Shown in pieces: positions 1-9,008 of a stretch of 64,000 bases of DNA (position 1 is its first letter; each line of letters begins with the position of its first letter). Under the pieces are notes generated by a model. The model had not been told where the DNA came from. It saw only the letters and a list, made by a program, of their open reading frames with translations, and did not search any database. Source of the DNA: Vulcanimicrobiota bacterium. Lineage in GTDB: Bacteria; Vulcanimicrobiota; Vulcanimicrobiia; Vulcanimicrobiales; Vulcanimicrobiaceae. A program made the position numbers and the translations under genes. The stretch lies in contig CAWGBN010000007.1 in assembly GCA_963820825.1 (NCBI GenBank), positions 64,001-128,000 on the forward strand, written 5' to 3'.

Positions 1-1888
1 CGCGCGTATCTTCGTCGGAGTGCAGAATCATCACCGGCGTATGGATTCCCTCAACGTACGTCAGCGGTGAGAACTTCGCGTAATCGGTGCTGGCCGGATC
101 CCACGGCGGCCCCCACGTATAGTAGCCGCCGCCCAAGCCGTTCTTGCCTGCGAAGTCGGCCGCGAGATTCTCACTCTGAAGATTGCTCACCGCACGCTCG
201 GCAACCGCGACCTTATAGCGGTCGGTGTGCGCGATCACCCATAGTGTGGCGTATCCGCCGTACGAGCCGCCGAGAACGCCCATGTGCGTGGCGTCGACGT
301 CGGGGCGGCGAACGGCGGCGTTCATCACGGCCTGCACGTCTTGGAACATCGCGTCGCCGTAGTTGCTCTCCAGCGCCTCTTCAAACGCGTACCCGTGGCC
401 CGTGCTTCCCGCCGGATCGGAGAAGACGACGTTATACCCCATCGACGTATAGAGTTGAAACTCCGCAAAGAACGTATCGCCGAACTGCGTCTCCGGTCCG
501 CCGTGAATGTCGAGCAGCGTCGGATGCTTCGCACCCGGCGCGCCGGTCGTCGCCGGCATGAACCAGGCCTGCACGGTAAATCCCGCGGGGTCCTTGACGT
601 CGAACTCCTGCGGCTGGGAGAGGGTCACCGAAGCGAGATAGGCGCCGTTGACGTTGGTGAGCCGGCGCGGCGCGCCGCCCGCAACGTTTGCAACGAAGAC
701 GTCGGCGGGATGCGCGAAATCGCTATAGAGATAGGCGACGCGGCTTCCATCGGTCGAAACGCTGCACGACCAGGCCTCGCCGTTAGGCGGGGTGACGTCG
801 GTAAACGTGCCGTTGGTGAGGTCGAGCGTCCGCAGATTTGCATAACCAGGCCCGTCGACGTTGAGCAGCGCGCGGTCGGCCCCGGGCAACGGCGCCCCGC
901 AGAGTCCGCCGCCCTCTTTCATGTCGGCGAGCAGCGAATCGCCCCAGCCGACCGTATTCTTCGTCACGACAATGCGCCGGTCGGAACCGTCGAGGTTCGC
1001 GACGACGAGCGCCGGCTGCCCCGCCGAGTCTTTGACGTCGGCGCTCAAAAAGTAGACGTGGCGATTGTCGTTGCCGATAAAGAACCCAAAGTTTGCGGGA
1101 AGCGGCGAGTCGACTTTCTGCATTGCGCCGCCCGTCGACGGCACGGTGTAGACGTCGTTCGTTCCGCTATCGACCGATTCGAAGCGCAGGGAGTCGAAGA
1201 GAATCGTCTTATCGTCGGGCGACCACGCATCGAACCCTTCGGAGTATTGACCCGAGGTGAGTTGCTTGGGATTCGAACCATCGGCAGCGACCGTCCAGAT
1301 ATGCTGATGGTCGCGGTAGGTGTAGCCTGCTCCGTTTACCTGGAAGAAGAGCTGGTTGATGATATTGATGTCGCTCTTCTTCTGCGCATCCTTCGGCGTG
1401 AAGCCGGCCTTGGCAAAATCAATCTGCGCCGCCGGCATTGGATCGGTCTCGGTTACCGTGAGCGCGATGCGGTCGCCGGCGTGGGAGACCACCGGTCCCG
1501 AGACGCCCTGCTTCATATGCGTCAGTTGGACGATCGCGCCGGTGCCCAGCGTGTACCGATAGAGTTGCGGCTTCTGCTTCTCCACCCTACGGACGAAGAC
1601 GAAGCTCCGCCCGTCGAGCATCCATGCGTAGTCGCCGTCGCCGACGTGCTTGGTGACGTTCTCGGTGAGCTTTCCCGTCGATACGTCGACGAGGTCGATC
1701 GTGCGATCGTAAGTATCCTTCGGACCGTTCATCCGCGAGGATTGCACCAGCACGTGAGTGCCGTCGGGCGAGATGCTCGTCGCGCTCAAGAGCGTAAGCT
1801 TGTAGAGATCTTCGGGGGCGACCGGCGCCGCCGCGACGGCTATCGGGGAGAACGCCAGGAGGATCGTTGCAAGAAACACATTTCGCAT
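1..1888 (-). CDS. S9 family (prolyl oligopeptidase/acylaminoacyl-peptidase-like) peptidase with signal peptide; 3' end runs off the window
   Basis: Manual translation from ATG at 1888 (MRNVFLATILLAFSPIAVAA...) gives PD40-like SPDG repeats, an in-frame GGSYGG nucleophile motif near 250-270 and TPVMILHSDEDTR near the window start. Absent from the ORF track because no stop codon lies in the window. Confidence 0.9.
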   Translation of the reverse strand, partial: MRNVFLATILLAFSPIAVAAAPVAPEDLYKLTLLSATSISPDGTHVLVQSSRMNGPKDTYDRTIDLVDVSTGKLTENVTKHVGDGDYAWMLDGRSFVFVRRVEKQKPQLYRYTLGTGAIVQLTHMKQGVSGPVVSHAGDRIALTVTETDPMPAAQIDFAKAGFTPKDAQKKSDINIINQLFFQVNGAGYTYRDHQHIWTVAADGSNPKQLTSGQYSEGFDAWSPDDKTILFDSLRFESVDSGTNDVYTVPSTGGAMQKVDSPLPANFGFFIGNDNRHVYFLSADVKDSAGQPALVVANLDGSDRRIVVTKNTVGWGDSLLADMKEGGGLCGAPLPGADRALLNVDGPGYANLRTLDLTNGTFTDVTPPNGEAWSCSVSTDGSRVAYLYSDFAHPADVFVANVAGGAPRRLTNVNGAYLASVTLSQPQEFDVKDPAGFTVQAWFMPATTGAPGAKHPTLLDIHGGPETQFGDTFFAEFQLYTSMGYNVVFSDPAGSTGHGYAFEEALESNYGDAMFQDVQAVMNAAVRRPDVDATHMGVLGGSYGGYATLWVIAHTDRYKVAVAERAVSNLQSENLAADFAGKNGLGGGYYTWGPPWDPASTDYAKFSPLTYVEGIHTPVMILHSDEDTR

Positions 1889-4005
1889 CACGTGCCTTTT
1901 TGCGCCCCGGCGTAGAAGATTACCTTGAAGATCGCTTGCGGCACGGTGGTCAGCGCGTTGGGGTTGCCGTAGGCGATATAGATCTCGCTGCGGCGCAGGC
2001 GCAAGTGATAGGCGATCGAGACGTTAGAGCACTCCCCTTCGCAGTTACCGCCGCCGTTGGGAATCGGCGGATAGCCCACCACCCGCCGCAGGCCGATCGC
2101 GAACGACGAGTTCGGCCCGAGCTGGTATGCATAGCTGAGACTCTCGAACCATTGGATGTTGTCGGAGGCCGGCGAGGGTTGCCACTGCGCGGTGTCGTCG
2201 AGCGAGAGCGTCAGCGCGCCGTGATTGCCGACCCGGATCGTCGTAGAGCGGAACCACGTATCGAGCCGGCCCGCGCCGTATCGGCCGGTGTTGTACGAGA
2301 TGCTCGTCGGATACGAGGACGGACCGTGATACGGAAACTGTCCGGGATTATTCGTCTGCAGCCCGCTGTTGTAGGTGAACTGAAAGCCCCCGTTCTGCGT
2401 GATCGGCGTCAGCAGATCGCCGAACCGCCAGTAGTTCGAGCCGGAGTAAAACTGCAGATCGAGCGCCTTCTTCGTAAGCACGTCGAGGACGAGCTGGTTA
2501 TCGCTCTGCGCCTGGCCGAATTCCGGCCCTTGATACCGGTCGAGGAAGCCGGCCAGACCCACCGAGACCAGCTTAGCGCTCGGACTAAAATCGAAGATCT
2601 TGGCCGCATAGAGTGCGTAGCCGGCGATGCCCGGGTGCGAGATGAAGCCGTCGGTCGGGTTATAGTATTCGCCGAGCTTGCGCGTCGCGCCGAAGAAGCC
2701 GAAGGTTTGATTCGCCCAACCGGCCCCAACTTCGTAGTACTGCGCCTGGTCGGGCACGAGCGCGTTCGTCCCCGAGTCGTTGCCGTAGTTCGCGTACGCG
2801 CTGAAGTGCTTGAGATCCGAGTATGCGATCCCGCCCTCCGTCGTCGTGTCTATGAATCCCGGCATCGTCACCGAGACGCGTTGCAGACTCGTGAACCAGC
2901 TCGTGTTCGCTGAGGTAAAGTTGAGCGCGCTCGCGAGGTCGTTGCGGTTATCGCCGACCGAGTCGAAGGTTGCAAAGCCGAGCGGGCCCTGTTTGCCCTC
3001 GACGGCGTACCCCTGCGAGGGCGTCGGAATCGCCGGGGTATAGAGCGATTGGATGTTCTGACAGGCGTCGCAGTTGAACTGATTGTAGAAGCTCGCGGCC
3101 TGCGTAAAGAAGGGCCGCACTTCGCTATAATACCGCTGGTAGACCGTCGGCGCGATCGTTTGCTGATCGAGTTCGACGTTGGAGTAATCCGGATGAAAGG
3201 TCGAGTAGAACGACGCCGTCGGGGTGATCGGAATCGAGAGATCGGCCCCGACGCGTGAGGTCGAGCCGCCGATCGTCTGGCTCGCCGCTTCGCCGAGGGC
3301 ATAAATCGCGGCGCGCGGTTTGGGGCGCGAGAACCCGACTTTGATCTGCGGAAGCGTGATGCTGCCCGCGTGCGCGTAATCGGAGTTGCCGAAACTGTCG
3401 GGCTGCATTTGAATTTTGTCGAACGACCAGACCTGCTGCTCGCCCGTAGCGCGTACGTAGCGCACGAACTGCGCCTTCCAAGTGCCGCCGTGCGCGTTGC
3501 GGATAACGTCGAGCGGTATCCGCATCGTGACCGTGTAACCGTCGCCGTGCGTTATGCCCTGCGAGTCCCAATTCGGCGAATAGCCGGTATTCTCCGACGA
3601 GTACTCGTAGTGCGTTCCGTTCGGCGTCGAATAGAACTGATAGAAGTAGCCGCTGATGCCGTTGGGCCAGAGGTCGACCCAGACCGCGTCGTCGCTTCCT
3701 TGACCGACGTCGTTAGTGTGCTGCGCGGCCGAGATCTGCTCGCGCTGCTTGGCATCGAAGCGCAGGTAGAGCGAGTGCCCGTCGGTCCCGATCCAGGCCG
3801 TCGTCGGTTCGCTCGCCGGACGGGAACGGAAGGCATCCCAGGTTAGCTGCAGGTTCGCCGCGTGCGACCACTCGGTCACCGGCGCGTTGGGATCGAGCGG
3901 GGGATCGGCCGCGTCGGGGACTGCGACCTGGGGATAGGCGAGCGCCGCTACGGTCGTCATCGCGATAACCGCCGCGGCGCCGATCGCCGCGAGCCGGCCG
4001 TTCAT
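1888..4005 (-). CDS. Secreted hypothetical protein; N-terminal CBM9/DOMON-like domain and a DUF5916-like, probably outer-membrane beta-barrel C-terminal region
   Basis: Start MNGRLAAIG overlaps the upstream stop (TAATG). Has a signal peptide, GYTVTMRIPL and HPDYSNVELD...YSEVRPFF motifs resembling DUF5916 proteins, and an aromatic/alternating beta-strand-rich C-terminus. Confidence 0.65.
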   Translation of the reverse strand: MNGRLAAIGAAAVIAMTTVAALAYPQVAVPDAADPPLDPNAPVTEWSHAANLQLTWDAFRSRPASEPTTAWIGTDGHSLYLRFDAKQREQISAAQHTNDVGQGSDDAVWVDLWPNGISGYFYQFYSTPNGTHYEYSSENTGYSPNWDSQGITHGDGYTVTMRIPLDVIRNAHGGTWKAQFVRYVRATGEQQVWSFDKIQMQPDSFGNSDYAHAGSITLPQIKVGFSRPKPRAAIYALGEAASQTIGGSTSRVGADLSIPITPTASFYSTFHPDYSNVELDQQTIAPTVYQRYYSEVRPFFTQAASFYNQFNCDACQNIQSLYTPAIPTPSQGYAVEGKQGPLGFATFDSVGDNRNDLASALNFTSANTSWFTSLQRVSVTMPGFIDTTTEGGIAYSDLKHFSAYANYGNDSGTNALVPDQAQYYEVGAGWANQTFGFFGATRKLGEYYNPTDGFISHPGIAGYALYAAKIFDFSPSAKLVSVGLAGFLDRYQGPEFGQAQSDNQLVLDVLTKKALDLQFYSGSNYWRFGDLLTPITQNGGFQFTYNSGLQTNNPGQFPYHGPSSYPTSISYNTGRYGAGRLDTWFRSTTIRVGNHGALTLSLDDTAQWQPSPASDNIQWFESLSYAYQLGPNSSFAIGLRRVVGYPPIPNGGGNCEGECSNVSIAYHLRLRRSEIYIAYGNPNALTTVPQAIFKVIFYAGAQKGT

Positions 4006-4781
4006 TACAGAGTCGCTCCCTCGAGATTCGAGTTGCTGCCGCGCCGCAGCGTCGCCGCATCGACCGCTTTGCAGTTCTGCGGCTCGCGGCCGCCCCGGCA
4101 GACTAGCGCCCCGCGCAGATCCGCTCCGTGCAGATCGGCGTTGAGGAAATTGGCGCAATGGATTCCGTCGGTGGTATGGCTTTCGTTATCGATCACCACG
4201 TTGCCGTACGAGCAGAGCTGCGCGTTGCGAAAGTCCGCGTCGCGCAGATCGGCGCCGACAAAATCGACGCCTTGCACGTCCGCCCGCTCGAAGCGTACGC
4301 CGCGGGCGCTCGCATCGCGAAAATCGCTGCCGACGATCGAGACGCCCGAGAGATCGCGTCCCCGCAGGTCCGCGCCGCGCGCGTTGCAGCCGATGCATCG
4401 AGCGAAGAGCCCGCGCAGGTCGGCGTCGTCGAGCCCGGTCACCGCGTCGCTCAGGTTCGCGCCGGTGAGATTCGTCGACCCGAAGTGCGCGCCGTGAAGC
4501 TTCGCGCTGCGGAGGTCTACGCCGGTGAGGTTTGCATCGCGCAAATCCGCGCCGCGCAGATCCGCGCGGCTAAAGTCCACGCCGGTCAGATTGGCATTGC
4601 GGAGATTCGCGTTACGCAGATCCGATCGGGCGAAGTCTACGCCGACGTAGGCTCCGTGGGTGAGGTCGGCTCCGCGCAGATCGCGTCCGGCAAAGTCGCA
4701 TCCGGTGCAGTTTGCCGGCAGTCCCGGCCCGACGGCCAGGGTAAGTACGAGCGACATAAGCGAAGGTAAGCGGCCGTTCAT
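4005..4781 (-). CDS. Secreted pentapeptide-repeat protein
   Basis: GGAG RBS before ATG 4781, a hydrophobic N-terminus, many A(D/N)LxG-type pentapeptides and two CxGC caps (CTGCD, CIGCN). Confidence 0.9.
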   Translation of the reverse strand: MNGRLPSLMSLVLTLAVGPGLPANCTGCDFAGRDLRGADLTHGAYVGVDFARSDLRNANLRNANLTGVDFSRADLRGADLRDANLTGVDLRSAKLHGAHFGSTNLTGANLSDAVTGLDDADLRGLFARCIGCNARGADLRGRDLSGVSIVGSDFRDASARGVRFERADVQGVDFVGADLRDADFRNAQLCSYGNVVIDNESHTTDGIHCANFLNADLHGADLRGALVCRGGREPQNCKAVDAATLRRGSNSNLEGATL

Positions 4782-4893
4782 TGTCGTTCTCCACTTTGAA
4801 ATCGGCGATTGGGGTGCACGAAACCAGACCGGCAATCGCCAGGCGTTATTTTTGGGATAGGTCGGTCGGGCGCGCTATCGCGCCGAGCCTAGA

Positions 4894-7005
4894 TCAGGGG
4901 TGCGGCGAGTGGCCCTTCGAGAAGTCCATACCGATCATCTTGGTCCTCGAAAGATCGACGTGACTAAGGTCGACGCCGCTCAGGTCGCAACCGTTGAGCG
5001 TTGCGCCGACCAGATTTACTCCGTCCATTCTTGCATTACTGAAATCGGTGCCGACAAGTTCCGCTCCGGCGAAGTTGACGTTGCGCAGATCGGCCCCCGT
5101 GAAGTCGTCGCCGTTCGTGCGCACGCCGTGCAAGTCAAGCCCCGATAGGTCGGCCCGGCTGAAGTCGCAGCCCTTGCAGTGAGTCAGGACGTCTCGGGCC
5201 TGCGACGATCCGAGCCGGGCTCCCGTGAACTGACAACCCGAGAGCCACGCGCCGGTGAAATCGGCGCCGGTCAGGTTTGCGTTCGAGAAGTCGCAGCCGG
5301 TCAGGTGGGCGTTGCGGAATGACGCGCCGCTCAGATTCGCCTTGGTGAAGTCGGCGCCGTTGAAAGATCCGCCTGAAAAGTTCGCTCCGGTCAGGTTCGC
5401 CTTGGAGAAGTCGACGCCGGTGTAGTTGACGTCGCGCAGGTCCTTGCCGGCCCAGTTGACGCCGCTGTAGTCACAGCCGACGCAGGTCTTCACTTGCGCG
5501 AGGGTCGTCGCGGCGATGTGCCGCGCGAGCGCGGCCGTCGAGCGCGTCATCTCCTGCGCAAGCTTCGTCTCGCCGGCCGGAAGCGTAACGCTCATCTTCG
5601 GGACGTTCACGTCCGTGGCCGGAACATGCAGCGTCATGCCCGGGACGGTGACGTGCGTCGCCGGAACCTCGATCGTCCTCCGTTGCCGCGGCGGGCTTTG
5701 CGGCTGGGCAGGCGGATTCTGACTCCGCACAGGCGGACTCTGACTCTGCGCAGCGGTTTGCGTGCGCCGGACGACCTCGATGCGCATGGCAGCCGCGCTG
5801 TGCGCTGCGGCCGAGGCCGCGACGTGCGGTGCGAGCGACGCGGCGACGCGCGGCGCGGCCGGCGTGGCGACCTGAGGGGCGGTGGCCGGCGCCGCCGCCG
5901 TGGCGATTACCGGACCCGCCACCGACGGCGCGACCGCGGCGATCGCAAGCGCGATTGATCCGACGATCGCTACCGCGGCGGCAGCCGGCCCGAGCGAGAG
6001 ATTGGTCGCAATGTTGCGGCCCGCGCCGAGCAGCCGTTCGATGCGCAGCGAGATGTGCTTTCGCGTCGCGAAGACGCCGGGGGCGGGGATCGGGTTGCGC
6101 GGCCACGACGCATTCTCCGCCATCTTGGTGAGGCAGAGCGCGTACGGCCGAACGGTGCCGATGAACGAGAGCACCCAATCGTCGCAAGCGACCTCGCGTT
6201 CGAGATCGAGTTGCTGTCCGGCAAAGAGCGCGGCGGGATTCCAGCCGAGCAACGCGCTGATCAGCCGCTGCAAGCCGTTCGTCCAATCGTCGGCACGGCG
6301 CAGATGCGCGAGCTCGTGCAGGCAGATCTGATCCACCTCCGGCTCGGAGAGCCGGTCGAGCAGCGAATGCGGGATGAGGATCATCGCATCGAAGAGCCCG
6401 ACGGCGATCGGAACGTCGGTCGCGTCGCTGACGCAGAGCCGAACGTCCCGTGCGCCTTTATTCGCCCGCAGCCATTGCGGCATCGCGTCGCGATACTCGA
6501 CCGGTAGCGGAAGCGCGTCGCGTTTGAGCTGCTCGAGGCGAATCAAGCCGACCGCGAGACGAACGATCGCGTAACCGGCAAATCCCAGCCACAGCAGAAA
6601 GACGGCGACCGAAACTGCGGTCGGAATCGTCACCCGCGCGCGTTCGGGAAGACGTACCGGTTCGGGTTGCGCGCCGGCCGGCGTCGTCGTCCTTTGGAGC
6701 GGCGCCGGGAGCTCCGTATGCTTTACGGGTTCGTGCGAGACGGTCGCCGTTTGACGAATCGTCGCGAGCGTCGTGACGACCTGCGCCGGCGCAAAGAACG
6801 CAAGCGTCGTCGCCACCGGCACGACGAAGGCCGCGATCAGCGTCGCGCTCCAAACCGCGTACCGGGTTGCCGCGTTGATGCGCGGCCACGCGCGCAGCAG
6901 CAGCCAGACGCAGAGAACGAGCAGTGCGTCCTGCCAGAGCGCGTTTAGCACGATTGCCGAAAGCGCGCTCGCGACGGTTAGGAATCCTTGCTCTAGTCCG
7001 TTCAC
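4894..7005 (-). CDS. BlaR1/MecR1-like M56 metallopeptidase with Pro/Ala-rich linker and C-terminal pentapeptide-repeat domain
   Basis: N-terminal TM segments, HELAHLRRADDW zinc motif, EREVACDD and RIERLL typical of M56, then pentapeptide repeats with CVGCD and CKGCD caps. Overlaps the blaI-like stop (GTGA). Confidence 0.92.
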   Translation of the reverse strand: MNGLEQGFLTVASALSAIVLNALWQDALLVLCVWLLLRAWPRINAATRYAVWSATLIAAFVVPVATTLAFFAPAQVVTTLATIRQTATVSHEPVKHTELPAPLQRTTTPAGAQPEPVRLPERARVTIPTAVSVAVFLLWLGFAGYAIVRLAVGLIRLEQLKRDALPLPVEYRDAMPQWLRANKGARDVRLCVSDATDVPIAVGLFDAMILIPHSLLDRLSEPEVDQICLHELAHLRRADDWTNGLQRLISALLGWNPAALFAGQQLDLEREVACDDWVLSFIGTVRPYALCLTKMAENASWPRNPIPAPGVFATRKHISLRIERLLGAGRNIATNLSLGPAAAAVAIVGSIALAIAAVAPSVAGPVIATAAAPATAPQVATPAAPRVAASLAPHVAASAAAHSAAAMRIEVVRRTQTAAQSQSPPVRSQNPPAQPQSPPRQRRTIEVPATHVTVPGMTLHVPATDVNVPKMSVTLPAGETKLAQEMTRSTAALARHIAATTLAQVKTCVGCDYSGVNWAGKDLRDVNYTGVDFSKANLTGANFSGGSFNGADFTKANLSGASFRNAHLTGCDFSNANLTGADFTGAWLSGCQFTGARLGSSQARDVLTHCKGCDFSRADLSGLDLHGVRTNGDDFTGADLRNVNFAGAELVGTDFSNARMDGVNLVGATLNGCDLSGVDLSHVDLSRTKMIGMDFSKGHSPHP

Positions 7006-7388
7006 TCTCCCGGCTCCTCATACTCGGCGATCAGCGCCCGCAGGCGAAGCAGCTCCTCGTTCGAGGGTCGCTCCGTCTCGATCAAGCGTAGCGCAAGTGC
7101 GCCTGCGCTGTTGTCAAAGAATCTTGAAAGCAGATGTCCGACGGCGTGTCCGGCCGCCTCCTCCCGCGCGACGAGCGTGCGGTAGACGTACGCTCGCCCG
7201 GCCTCCACGTGGTCGACGTACCCCTTGCGCTCGAGGATCCGCATCGTCGTGAGCACGCTATTGTAGGCGAGCGGTGGAGGGGGTAACGCGGCCGTCACGT
7301 CCGCGACGGTCGCCTCGCCCTTCTCCCAGAGTACTTCCATCAGCCGAAGCTCGGCTTCCGTGAGCGTGACGGAACGGCGTCGCGCCAT
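7002..7388 (-). CDS. BlaI/MecI/CopY family transcriptional repressor
   Basis: LTEAELRLMEVLW...LAYNSVLTTMRILERKGYV...GRAYVY signature. Confidence 0.93.
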   Translation of the reverse strand: MARRRSVTLTEAELRLMEVLWEKGEATVADVTAALPPPPLAYNSVLTTMRILERKGYVDHVEAGRAYVYRTLVAREEAAGHAVGHLLSRFFDNSAGALALRLIETERPSNEELLRLRALIAEYEEPGE

Positions 7389-7389
7389 C

Positions 7390-7515
7390 CTATCGCCCCA
7401 GATCCGGGCCCCAGCCCTGGAAGATGCGGCTGGAGCCGTGCGCGTCGGGCAACCGGACCCGCGTACGGGCGGTCACGGGGAGCTCTTCGGTCGTGGGGTC
7501 GGGCTTGCGGGTCAT
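7390..7515 (-). CDS. Putative 41-aa small protein, first gene of the blaI-like operon
   Basis: GGAGG RBS 5 nt before ATG 7515. Translates MTRKPDPTTEELPVTARTRVRLPDAHGSSRIFQGWGPDLGR and stops 1 nt before the blaI-like ATG. Confidence 0.55.
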   Translation of the reverse strand: MTRKPDPTTEELPVTARTRVRLPDAHGSSRIFQGWGPDLGR

Positions 7516-7534
7516 CTCTGCCTCCATTGGGTCT

Positions 7535-7593
7535 ACTAACGATTTAGTTGCATCATATCCGGCCGCGGCGGCTTTGTCAACTAAGTATTTAGG
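7535..7593 (-). promoter_or_regulatory. Sigma70-type promoter (TTGACA-17-TATGAT) flanked by two palindromic operators ACTAA-N4-TTAGT, putative BlaI-family sites
   Basis: Minus strand: -35 TTGACA 7580-7575, -10 TATGAT 7557-7552, 17-nt spacer. Operators at 7535-7548 (ACTAAcgatTTAGT) and 7580-7593 (ACTAAgtatTTAGG). Confidence 0.8.
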
Positions 7594-7705
7594 ATTAAAA
7601 GAGCCCCGGAGACTGCCCCCACGCGGCGAGCCGTTGGGGGAATGCCGAAAGTGGCTGCCAATAAGGAGGCTGACTCAATCGCCCCACGCACCCAAGGAGA
7701 AGAGT

Positions 7706-8740
7706 TTGTTGAAAACGGCGCGCCTGGCGCTCCTATTTCTGACCGGCGGCCTGTTGGCCGCGTGCGGCAAAGGAACGCCGATCACCAGCGGCACGCCGAC
7801 GCCCTCCCCCACGATTCCGCCGCAAGTCACCGCTCAGTACAAAATTCCGACCGCGTCGAGCGAACCGCTCGGCATTGCGCTGGGAAGCGACGGCAATATT
7901 TGGGTGACCGAATTCGCATCGAGTAAGATGGCGCGGCTCGGCACGGCGGGTAAATTCGCCGAGAGCGTCACGCCCACACGCAAGGCCGGCCCCAACGGCG
8001 TCGCTTCAGGCCCCGGGCCGAACCTCAACGTCTGGTTCACCGAAACCAACGTCGGCCGCGTCGCGCAAGTTACGATTGCGGGACCGCCCTACTCGGAGTA
8101 CACGCTACCCGATTCCGCGGCGAAGCCGGTCGGCATCGCGCTCGGATCGGATGGGAACATGTGGGTTACCGACCCCGGTACGAACTCGGTCTGGCGCGTC
8201 GAGCAGATTCGCGCGAAGCCCCACGTGCACTTTACGCAGTACCACCTCACCGGCAACGCGCAACCGATGGTGATCACCAACGGTCCCGATGGCGCGCTCT
8301 GGTTTACCGAACCCGGAACGGACAGCATCGGTCGTCTCAGCACCAACGGCCGCACGCTCAGCGAGTATCCGCTCACGACGAAGAACGCCTATCCGATGGG
8401 CATCGCCTCGGGAACCGATAACGGGCTCTGGTTCGTCGAACAGAAGGGGCTCCAGATCGGCCGCATGTCGATCACCGGAGCCGTTACCGCCGAGTATCCG
8501 CTCAACGGAGCGATGCAGCCCGATGCGATCGTGCAGGGCATCGACGGGAACTTCTACTTCACCGATACCGCCAAGAATAAGATCGGGCAGTTCTTCTTCA
8601 AAACGCATCGCGTGAATTTCTACTCCATTCCCACGGCAGACTCCGAACCGACGGCGATGACGATCGGATTGGACGGGCAGGTCTATTTCGTCGAGACGGC
8701 CGGCAATAAGGTGGGTCAGTTCCGCTACTTCAACGTGTAG
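7706..8740 (+). CDS. Vgb-like (virginiamycin B lyase fold) beta-propeller lipoprotein
   Basis: AAGGAG RBS with TTG start, lipobox LLAAC, and repeated PxGIxxGxDGxxWFTE blades. Confidence 0.85.
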   Translation: MLKTARLALLFLTGGLLAACGKGTPITSGTPTPSPTIPPQVTAQYKIPTASSEPLGIALGSDGNIWVTEFASSKMARLGTAGKFAESVTPTRKAGPNGVASGPGPNLNVWFTETNVGRVAQVTIAGPPYSEYTLPDSAAKPVGIALGSDGNMWVTDPGTNSVWRVEQIRAKPHVHFTQYHLTGNAQPMVITNGPDGALWFTEPGTDSIGRLSTNGRTLSEYPLTTKNAYPMGIASGTDNGLWFVEQKGLQIGRMSITGAVTAEYPLNGAMQPDAIVQGIDGNFYFTDTAKNKIGQFFFKTHRVNFYSIPTADSEPTAMTIGLDGQVYFVETAGNKVGQFRYFNV

Positions 8741-9008
8741 GCCGCTCCGCGCCGGCATCGCTCGGCTGCAGCTCGGCCAGCACGCGAACCTCCGCCGCGC
8801 TACCGATCAAAAAATAGCGCGTTCCGACTCGAACGAGATGGATCGCGGCCTGGGTGGATAGCGCCGTCGTCTCCAGCAGTTTCAGGCAACGGCCGGCGCC
8901 GAACGGGCGCACCGTCTTAAGCCGGCGAGCGACGGCGTAGGCGATCGTCAGCAAGAGCCCGACTACCGCCAGCTTCGCAACGTAGGCCGCCCAAAAGCCC
9001 GCGGGCAT
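8730..9008 (-). CDS. fliO: Flagellar biosynthesis protein FliO-like
   Basis: Single TM followed by LKLLETTALSTQAAIHLVRVGTRYFLIG...VRVLAEL, a FliO-type pattern; next to flbD and fliJ. Confidence 0.7.
   Translation of the reverse strand: MPAGFWAAYVAKLAVVGLLLTIAYAVARRLKTVRPFGAGRCLKLLETTALSTQAAIHLVRVGTRYFLIGSAAEVRVLAELQPSDAGAERPTR

Follow-up and report, generated by a model that had tools for sequence, protein, structure and literature searches.

What does a BlaR1-type switch respond to when its sensor is a pentapeptide-repeat helix and not a penicillin-binding domain? The question is raised by a locus in the 64,000-nucleotide (nt) stretch of DNA analysed here (the window; positions 64,001 to 128,000 of contig CAWGBN010000007.1, assembly GCA_963820825.1), which comes from a soil bacterium of the little-studied phylum Eremiobacterota (Vulcanimicrobiota). 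On the minus strand of window positions 1-7600, a small open reading frame (ORF), a blaI-type repressor gene, a gene for an M56 protease fused to pentapeptide repeats, a gene for a free pentapeptide-repeat protein (PRP), a gene for a predicted barrel protein and an S9 peptidase gene follow one another head to tail (Table 1). BlaIR switches are known almost only from beta-lactam resistance, and more than 90% of them carry other, unexplained sensors according to a 2026 survey (PMC13492132). Our analysis confirmed the module as real and conserved, and the fusion as the protease of a BlaI/M56 pair with a PRP sensor predicted to lie outside the cytoplasm. We consider it probable that the locus encodes a self-repressed regulated-proteolysis switch of the BlaIR family, operating in a diderm bacterium with a periplasmic PRP domain as the receptor. 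The general logic of such a switch follows from the BlaIR family, and what is new is the fold of the sensor, the paired exported paralogue and the link to an unstudied outer-membrane barrel.

The protease, its sensor and the repressor

The 703-amino-acid (aa) fusion protein matches Peptidase_M56 (PF05569) at residues 19-323 (E 9.1e-29, 101 bits against a cut-off of 31), with HELAH at residues 230-234 (window positions 6318..6304) and an ExxxD motif formed by E271 and D275. The residues H230, E231, H234, E271 and D275 are invariant in an alignment of 57 sequences and align with H201/E202/H205 (HExxH) and E242/D246 (ExxxD) of Staphylococcus aureus BlaR1. In the cryo-electron microscopy structure of BlaR1 these two motifs coordinate zinc, four full transmembrane (TM) helices are present, and the active site faces the cytosol while the sensor projects from the opposite face (PMC9834060). 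The same layout, with four TM helices, a cytoplasmic active site and the C-terminal domain outside, is predicted for the window's protein. Its AlphaFold model (mean predicted local distance difference test, pLDDT, of 66.7) contains long helices at residues 3-39, 45-71, 129-163 and 338-363, and its N-terminal part matches BlaR1 8exp_A in Foldseek (E 1.4e-4, 316 columns). Lysine plus arginine per 100 aa across the alignment amounts to 0 at the N-terminus, 25 in loop 1, 20 after TM3, 13 before TM4 and 3 after TM4, a charge bias that fits a protein with both termini outside. The NCBIfam model blaR1_generic reached 60.9 bits against a cut-off of 400, with the match confined to residues 126-325.

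No match to a penicillin-binding domain was found with Pfam in the 703-aa protein, the C-terminal domain of which is a Pentapeptide domain (PF00805) at about residues 495-700 (E 2.6e-43, 145.6 bits against a cut-off of 20.2). A disordered stalk of about 115 residues (364-478), rich in Pro, Ala and Gln, connects the last membrane helix to the repeats. The repeats themselves are modelled as a helix over residues 505-695 with a pLDDT of about 96 and a strand periodicity of 20 residues, and this helix matches PRP structures in Foldseek at E ~1e-11. The sensor is placed outside the cytoplasm on the combined grounds of its homology to the BlaR1 topology, the charge bias, invariant cysteine pairs and a paralogue that bears a signal peptide (see below). 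Since an Omp85 gene is present in the genome and the envelope of the cultured phylum member Vulcanimicrobium alpinus is Gram-negative and includes an outer membrane (PMC9758169), "outside" should here mean the periplasm.

The repressor matches Penicillinase_R (PF03965) over profile positions 1-114 of 115 (E 2.6e-28, 99.1 bits against a cut-off of 22.6) and can be aligned from end to end with MecI, BlaI and the Mycobacterium tuberculosis homologue. It stays below the NCBIfam cut-offs for BlaI_of_BCL (35.5 against 180 bits), MecI (20.9 against 250) and CopY_TcrY (49.2 against 121.95), so that by these models it would be a member of the PF03965 family but not an orthologue of BlaI proper, MecI or CopY/TcrY. 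Its TGA (7004-7002) overlaps the GTG of the fusion gene (7005-7003). With these Pfam matches and the codon overlap at 7005-7002, the initial annotation was right that a BlaI-family repressor gene is coupled by GTGA to an M56 protease gene with HELAH, and Pfam and the model agree with its description of the sensor as a Pro/Ala/Gln-rich stalk plus pentapeptide repeats with two CxGC motifs in place of a penicillin-binding domain. A predicted cytoplasmic location of the repeats, named there as a result that would speak against the proposal, was not obtained.

Conservation of the module and relation of the two helices

The best 120 matches to the fusion in a collection of 5.8 billion proteins all combined M56 and Pentapeptide domains at 50-100% identity; they came from Cybelea, Baltobacteraceae and Eremiobacterota bins, and their names give no more than "pentapeptide repeat-containing protein" or the two COG names. 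In a sample of the phylum, at least 219 of 301 genomes gave a match at E up to 1e-10, which may cover part of the protein; this tally, and this tally alone, includes nine unpublished genomes. Among ESM Atlas clusters with at least 50 members, only two had the M56-PRP architecture, both commonest in Vulcanimicrobiota, and 22 of 24 hand-picked representatives from the exhaustive search carried both domains. A scan of one genome per species found the fusion in 50 loci, 44 of which are titled as Vulcanimicrobiota/Eremiobacterota lineages; of the other six, three go by Limnocylindria, Limnocylindrales or Armatimonadota, labels that may stem from binning, and three by "uncultured bacterium". Six loci from Acidobacteriota or Proteobacteria matched the M56 part only. 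Judged from these sequences, the fusion appears to be common in Vulcanimicrobiota and was found almost nowhere else.

Gene order was compared in two sets of loci, 50 of the window's family with the window's own included (set 1) and 50 found by the pattern HE[YH]AH (set 2); the pattern misses the HELAH proteins of the window's genus, and the sets are therefore taken as non-overlapping. In set 1 blaI lies 5' of the fusion in 49 loci, the remaining one beginning at a contig end, and the free PRP gene lies directly 3' in 43. In set 2 a free PRP gene is present downstream in 34 loci, absent in 11 and not assessable in 5 (34/45 assessable), and several loci have two PRP genes. The conservation of the blaI-M56-pentapeptide neighbourhood, which had been proposed as a check, is thus found in both sets and goes beyond chance. 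The operon ends after the PRP gene(s) in set 2, with a barrel gene adjoining in only 6/50 loci, which suggests that the trio of blaI, M56-PRP and free PRP is the ancestral core and that the barrel was added in the window's family.

The free PRP matches Pentapeptide almost as strongly as the sensor (E 1.9e-40, 136.4 bits against 20.2), and the two are collinear, with 37% identity over 200 residues and both CxGC motifs in register (residues 508-511 and 610-613 of the sensor, window positions 5484..5473 and 5178..5167; window positions 4709..4698 and 4397..4386 for the free PRP). An N-terminal hydrophobic segment precedes the first cysteine motif in 44/44 free-PRP ORFs of related loci, several of these segments with a typical Ala-x-Ala end, and the motif itself is CxGC in 43 and CxDC in one. 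The free PRP thus reads as a secreted protein. Its initial description as a secreted PRP with the same double CxGC architecture is borne out by the signal-like segment and the alignment in register, and fails to hold generally in one respect, as the second CxGC is missing in 11/40 aligned orthologues; the six cysteines that are invariant in this 40-sequence alignment are the first pair and four at the C-terminus. In the sensor, all four cysteines are invariant in 50/50 close orthologues. Seventeen distant members (31-53% identity) all have the first pair, and at least 90% of them retain the second. Each sensor CxGC follows a short alpha-helix (480-499; 600-609) and starts a run of coils, and in the repeat register the first cysteine takes the central inward position of a pentad and the second the inward i-2 position of the next. 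This inward placement in the first coil, directly after a capping helix, is most simply explained if each CxGC pair forms a disulfide that staples the first coil of its helix segment.

Such strictly kept cysteines could also be the sensing element themselves, by thiol-disulfide exchange or Cu(I)-type binding, with the helix as a scaffold only, and a BlaI/M56 pair that answers to copper does exist in PetRP (bioRxiv 10.1101/2020.07.31.226407). However, no copper, thiol-redox or metal-handling gene was found in or beside the operon in the loci examined, the second CxGC is evidently dispensable in the free PRPs that lack it, and the position of the cysteines fits a structural role. We regard a redox or metal switch as quite unlikely.

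The relation between sensor and free PRP was followed in a maximum-likelihood tree of 43 pairs out of 57 that passed length and motif filters, with every third locus (multiples of 3) taken among L003-L032. The label "sensor" or "free" changes only twice over the tree compared with a mean of 29 after shuffling, none of 500 shuffles being as low; the two clades have a parallel inner structure, and L125 is the only locus whose free PRP groups with its own sensor. It follows from this tree that the duplication is old and that both copies were inherited together, and on these sequences the two proteins are ancient, co-inherited paralogues. They are also the only Pentapeptide matches in the genome.

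A pair of helices kept together since before the main lineages split could point to a homeostat, in which the sensor helix reads the free PRP or its assembly by like-with-like contact and the level of exported PRP (and barrel) is held constant. It would fit such an arrangement that sensor and free PRP are collinear, that the genome has no other PRP and that in distant lineages, where the operon ends after the PRP gene(s), PRP is the only non-regulatory product. In 18/95 assessable loci, however, the sensor has no neighbouring free PRP, and no conserved exposed surface is common to both helices. Prediction of a complex between the ectodomain (478-703, 57-row alignment) and the mature free PRP (40-row alignment) gave scores of 0.29 and 0.20 against a mark of 0.32, which speaks neither for nor against binding. 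Product sensing of this kind seems to us unlikely, and reception of an external cue by the PRP helix remains the reading that we prefer. The positions conserved in the helices are structural only, apart from one invariant arginine (R604) in the linker helix of the sensor.

Control region and downstream genes

The site TTGACA-17-TATGAT is the only promoter-like site in window 1-8000 (mean of 1.2 in shuffled sequences), and its TTGACA is kept in related loci. Two CTAA-N4-TTAG palindromes, 45 bp apart, flank it. Six exact palindromes of this type occur in the 2.98-Mb genome, which is 85% complete, and only these two form a pair; the other four are singles and are taken for chance occurrences, about 10 being expected from base composition. 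One of the singles is on contig C8, 4.4 kb away from a barrel paralogue, and falls within or between unrelated ORFs. The layout recurs 5' of blaI in 49 loci, as an exact pair in 28, as a relaxed pair in 34 and with one or two changes in the rest; L049 has the distal palindrome only. The distal site abutting TTGACA also recurs in the distant loci of set 2, and yTAA-N4-TTAr abutting TTGACA was seen 5' of blaI in M56-only systems of Acidobacteriota, Vicinamibacterales and Betaproteobacteria (L128-L132), which suggests an operator type used across a broad branch of the BlaI-like repressors. The ATG lies only about 7 nt after the -10 hexamer in many of the distant loci from Vulcanimicrobiota (L077-L124), an arrangement that suggests leaderless transcripts.

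The gap between the M56 and free PRP genes (112 nt at the window locus, median 96 nt) contains TTGACA in 0/43 loci and an operator-like site in 2/43. Since the free PRP gene has no promoter or operator of its own in this short gap, it is most simply co-transcribed from the BlaI-operated promoter, and transcription of the operon from one promoter, and hence self-repression, is the economical reading. Linkage of the free PRP gene in relatives and its control by BlaI, both put up for checking by the initial annotation, come out in its favour, the latter by this reading. Elsewhere the genes are tightly packed: the stop codon of the free PRP gene and the ATG of the barrel gene share one base (TAATG), and the S9 peptidase gene overlaps the barrel gene by 4 bases, so that, with the GTGA of blaI and the fusion gene, start and stop codons overlap at three junctions. 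Terminator-like sites (7 against 6.4 expected) were uninformative, and window 1-9000 had no Rfam match at E up to 0.1. A look-up of public sequencing runs over window 1800-7700 listed none.

The small ORF in front of blaI has no Pfam family match. Its peptide is conserved, with the motifs TRVRLP and GWGP, in 25/49 loci, mostly of the window's genus; in these relatives it has 39-45 codons and its own ribosome-binding site, lies between the operators and blaI and stops at most a dozen bases from the blaI start. In relatives that lack it, blaI follows directly behind the promoter.

Table 1. Features of the locus, in window coordinates, from the control region downstream and then the divergent neighbour
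Feature	Positions	Strand	Remarks
Distal operator candidate CTAA-N4-TTAG	7581..7592	-	directly abuts the -35 hexamer
Sigma-70-type promoter TTGACA-17-TATGAT	7552..7580	-	11/12 matches
Proximal operator candidate CTAA-N4-TTAG	7536..7547	-	just 3' of the -10 hexamer
Small ORF, 41 aa, GGAGG ribosome-binding site	7390..7515	-	stop one base before the blaI ATG
BlaI/MecI/CopY-family winged-helix repressor, 128 aa	7002..7388	-	PF03965
M56 zinc protease (4 TM) with Pro/Ala-rich stalk and PRP ectodomain, 703 aa	4894..7005	-	PF05569, PF00805
Predicted exported free PRP, 258-aa precursor	4005..4781	-	PF00805; N-terminal hydrophobic segment
Predicted exported 705-aa protein, CBM9-like beta-sandwich and outer-membrane-type beta-barrel, DUF5916-like	1888..4005	-	model, fold matches
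S9 (prolyl-oligopeptidase family) peptidase with signal peptide	1..1891	-	leaves the window, to G000:C7:63831
Vgb-lyase-family beta-propeller, lipoprotein-type signal	7709..8740	+	divergent; regulatory region in common with the operon

The barrel gene follows downstream in 46/50 set-1 loci, including four that lack a free PRP and in which it stands directly behind the M56 gene; among these copies one is a remnant and one is divergently placed. Relatives of the 705-aa protein are "hypothetical proteins" of 59-88% identity without a Pfam domain, and DUF5916 (PF19313) scores 16.6 bits on the protein itself, below its cut-off of 22.6. In the model (pLDDT 80.2, predicted template modelling score 0.81), a signal helix and a beta-sandwich are accompanied by about 22 long strands. 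The sandwich matches the CBM9 structures 1i82 (template modelling score 0.70) and 4jpq (0.71), and the remainder matches outer-membrane proteins with 22 to 26 strands (E down to 4e-8), which together point to a CBM9-like beta-sandwich joined to a large beta-barrel. In the nearest ESM Atlas clusters, DUF5916 occurs in 19-50% of members and CBM9_1 (PF06452) in 14-27%; a literature search found no paper containing the word DUF5916. A second barrel copy, 32% identical, is encoded at G000:C8:479439-481592 (+) without a BlaI/M56 neighbour.

Further M56 proteases of the phylum carry other sensors. The second BlaI/M56 pair of the genome (G000:C6:311466-313155; L059:4466-6156) has a 429-aa protease ending in TonB_C (E 4e-6), and in paralogous proteases at L056:3962-8356, L057:3989-6175 and L058:3974-5731 the sensor consists of tandem helical repeats of about 35 residues without a Pfam family. 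In L056 the BlaI-M56 pair is directly followed by a CBM9/barrel homologue (E 3e-196), which suggests that outer-membrane proteins of one kind are controlled by BlaI/M56 switches that differ in their sensors.

That the barrel follows the switch so regularly, also where the free PRP is missing and also behind the different sensor of L056, could mean that the long, disordered, Pro/Ala-rich stalk brings the helix across the periplasm to the operon's own barrel and that barrel occupancy is the signal, comparable to FecA-FecR and to M56 proteases tipped with TonB_C. However, as the barrel adjoins so few of the distant M56-PRP loci, it would be an addition of one family and not part of the ancestral logic, and we consider a trans-envelope relay very unlikely. 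On the reading favoured here the barrel is instead one of the outputs of the switch.

The outermost genes were considered for a role in defence. In 11/16 long loci of the genus the full order is kept, with a divergent lyase-like gene, blaI, M56-PRP, PRP, barrel, S9 peptidase and a gene for a 273-aa protein. The last, located 3' of the S9 peptidase gene at G000:C7:62901-63722 (-) (L076:4902-5723), has a signal-like N-terminus and no Pfam family, and it ends the cluster in most loci of the window's family, including genera without the S9 peptidase. The lyase-like propeller belongs to the streptogramin B/virginiamycin lyase family (Pfam E 1e-69; PDB 2qc5, E 6.9e-49), and its gene is kept beside the operon in three genera. 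The PRPs AlbG, McbG and Qnr are resistance factors, and the model's helix matches the AlbG and Qnr structures. The operon might accordingly be imagined as an inducible defence of the envelope against an antibiotic of peptide type: the PRP helix would bind the compound, the free PRP would sequester it, and the propeller and the S9 peptidase, present in those 11 long loci, would degrade it. Yet most other lineages with the trio lack the lyase-like gene and the peptidase, the lyase-like protein stays far below the NCBI Vgb cut-offs (185 and 158 bits against 600), and the known resistance PRPs are cytoplasmic gyrase protectors. The Qnr and MfpA models were not reached either (penta_rpt_Qnr 64.4 and 59.8 against 240 bits; MfpA 44.3 and 44.7 against 360), and with both proteins predicted outside the cytoplasm neither PRP would be a gyrase protector of the Qnr/MfpA/AlbG type. 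An antibiotic defence of this kind is, in our estimate, improbable. All parts of the initially annotated module are in place, but that description was incomplete, having missed the barrel, the S9 peptidase and the small 5' ORF.

The proposed switch and its place in the BlaIR family

In the probable BlaIR-type switch with a periplasmic PRP receptor, a repressor dimer on the palindromes would block the promoter until the PRP helix receives a cue from outside the cytoplasm and the protease site on the cytoplasmic side is activated in response. The activated protease would then cut the repressor, and expression of the operon would provide more of the switch itself, the free PRP and, in the window's family, the barrel and the S9 peptidase. 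The free PRP would most likely recognise the same target as the sensor and thereby serve as an effector or a buffer.

Several points weigh against this mechanism. DNA binding, repressor cleavage and induction are each inferred from sequence and models, and the M56 portion of the model has only moderate confidence. Where MecI has a segment containing Asn-Phe, the repressor has Arg-Leu, and the dipeptide is not conserved; Asn-Phe in the dimerisation domain of BlaI/MecI, which we take to be the cleavage site, is a feature of the staphylococcal proteins and not of the whole repressor family. A conserved exposed face that would mark a ligand site was looked for on both helices, and none was found. 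The idea of a DNA mimic was set aside, as the net charge of both helices is only modest, with medians of -5 (sensor domain) and -2.5 (free PRP). The free PRP, missing in 7/50 loci of set 1 and 11/45 of set 2, is not indispensable. In L072 (G161:C1:630879-642882), from the same genus, blaI and M56-PRP are kept, but the free PRP gene is gone and the barrel gene has shrunk to a 122-aa remnant; as a natural deletion, this locus could show the behaviour of the switch without its local outputs. Finally, the counts of two PRP genes and one operator pair are floors, given the 85% completeness of the genome.

The closest precedents are BlaR1-BlaI and MecR1-MecI of Staphylococcus aureus and Bacillus licheniformis. 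They have in common with the window's locus the coupling of the repressor gene to the M56 gene, the HExxH and ExxxD motifs, the four-helix layout, an active site on the cytoplasmic side with the sensor opposite, a promoter with two palindromic operators (here candidates) and an exported, sensor-related protein under the control of the switch (here predicted). The sensor of BlaR1/MecR1, however, is a penicillin-binding domain, whereas that of the window's protein is a PRP beta-helix on a long flexible stalk. Further differences are the operator sequence, a repressor without the MecI cleavage dipeptide, a diderm host, and a PRP and an outer-membrane barrel as the outputs.

BlaI/M56 pairs that do not sense beta-lactams have been described in CenIR of C. 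difficile, PvmSR of P. aeruginosa (10.64898/2026.08.03.742534), PetRP of Synechocystis and mycobacterial BlaIR. In these systems the sensor domain is absent or short and largely unstructured, in contrast to the large, confidently modelled helix of the window's protein with its exported paralogue adjoining. The survey in the CenIR paper covers about 15,000 M56 proteins in 254 architectures, of which the penicillin-binding domain accounts for about 6% and TonB_C is the second commonest, and concludes that BlaIR systems sense many things (PMC13492132). The word "pentapeptide" is absent from the main text of that paper, the supplements of which may list the architecture. Our literature search found no paper that joins a BlaR-type protease to a PRP and none on Eremiobacterota with pentapeptide. 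The initial statement that no characterised system of this type is known therefore stands with respect to the architecture, but with diverse BlaR sensors already in print (PMC13492132) the system is less unprecedented than was implied.

Similar to the window's protein, the M56 proteases tipped with TonB_C occur in diderm hosts and have a periplasm-spanning linker, and the function of these forms is itself untested (10.1101/2023.07.07.548152). With a PRP helix as the tip instead of TonB_C, no TonB-box partner is implied here. Right-handed quadrilateral beta-helices outside the cytoplasm are likewise found in the thylakoid-lumen Rfr proteins (PDB 2f3l/2g0y, 2o6w, 3n90) and in DotG/IcmE of Legionella type IVB secretion (7muc), structures that are among the sequence or fold matches of the two PRPs. 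Unlike the window's proteins, they have no fusion to a signalling protease and no BlaI-type switch. To our knowledge, the functions of Rfr and DotG/IcmE are largely unknown.

It is possible, although rather doubtful, that the PRP helix is a true extracytoplasmic receptor and that a sensor tip with an exported paralogue is a general design rule of BlaIR systems. If so, the sensor would have been built by fusing a copy of a protein that handles a compound or an envelope component to an M56 protease, a periplasmic PRP would have a ligand-binding role for the first time, and the binding partners of exported paralogues would open a way to finding the ligands of many orphan BlaIR systems. The locus offers a tractable case, with a well-folded sensor, an exported paralogue as bait, a portable promoter and operator and hundreds of natural variants, and it ties a never-studied DUF5916-like outer-membrane family to a defined regulator. 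Solving this module would tell the role of periplasmic PRPs and would show how sensing of the envelope or the surroundings works in a phylum that abounds in acidic soils poor in nutrients.

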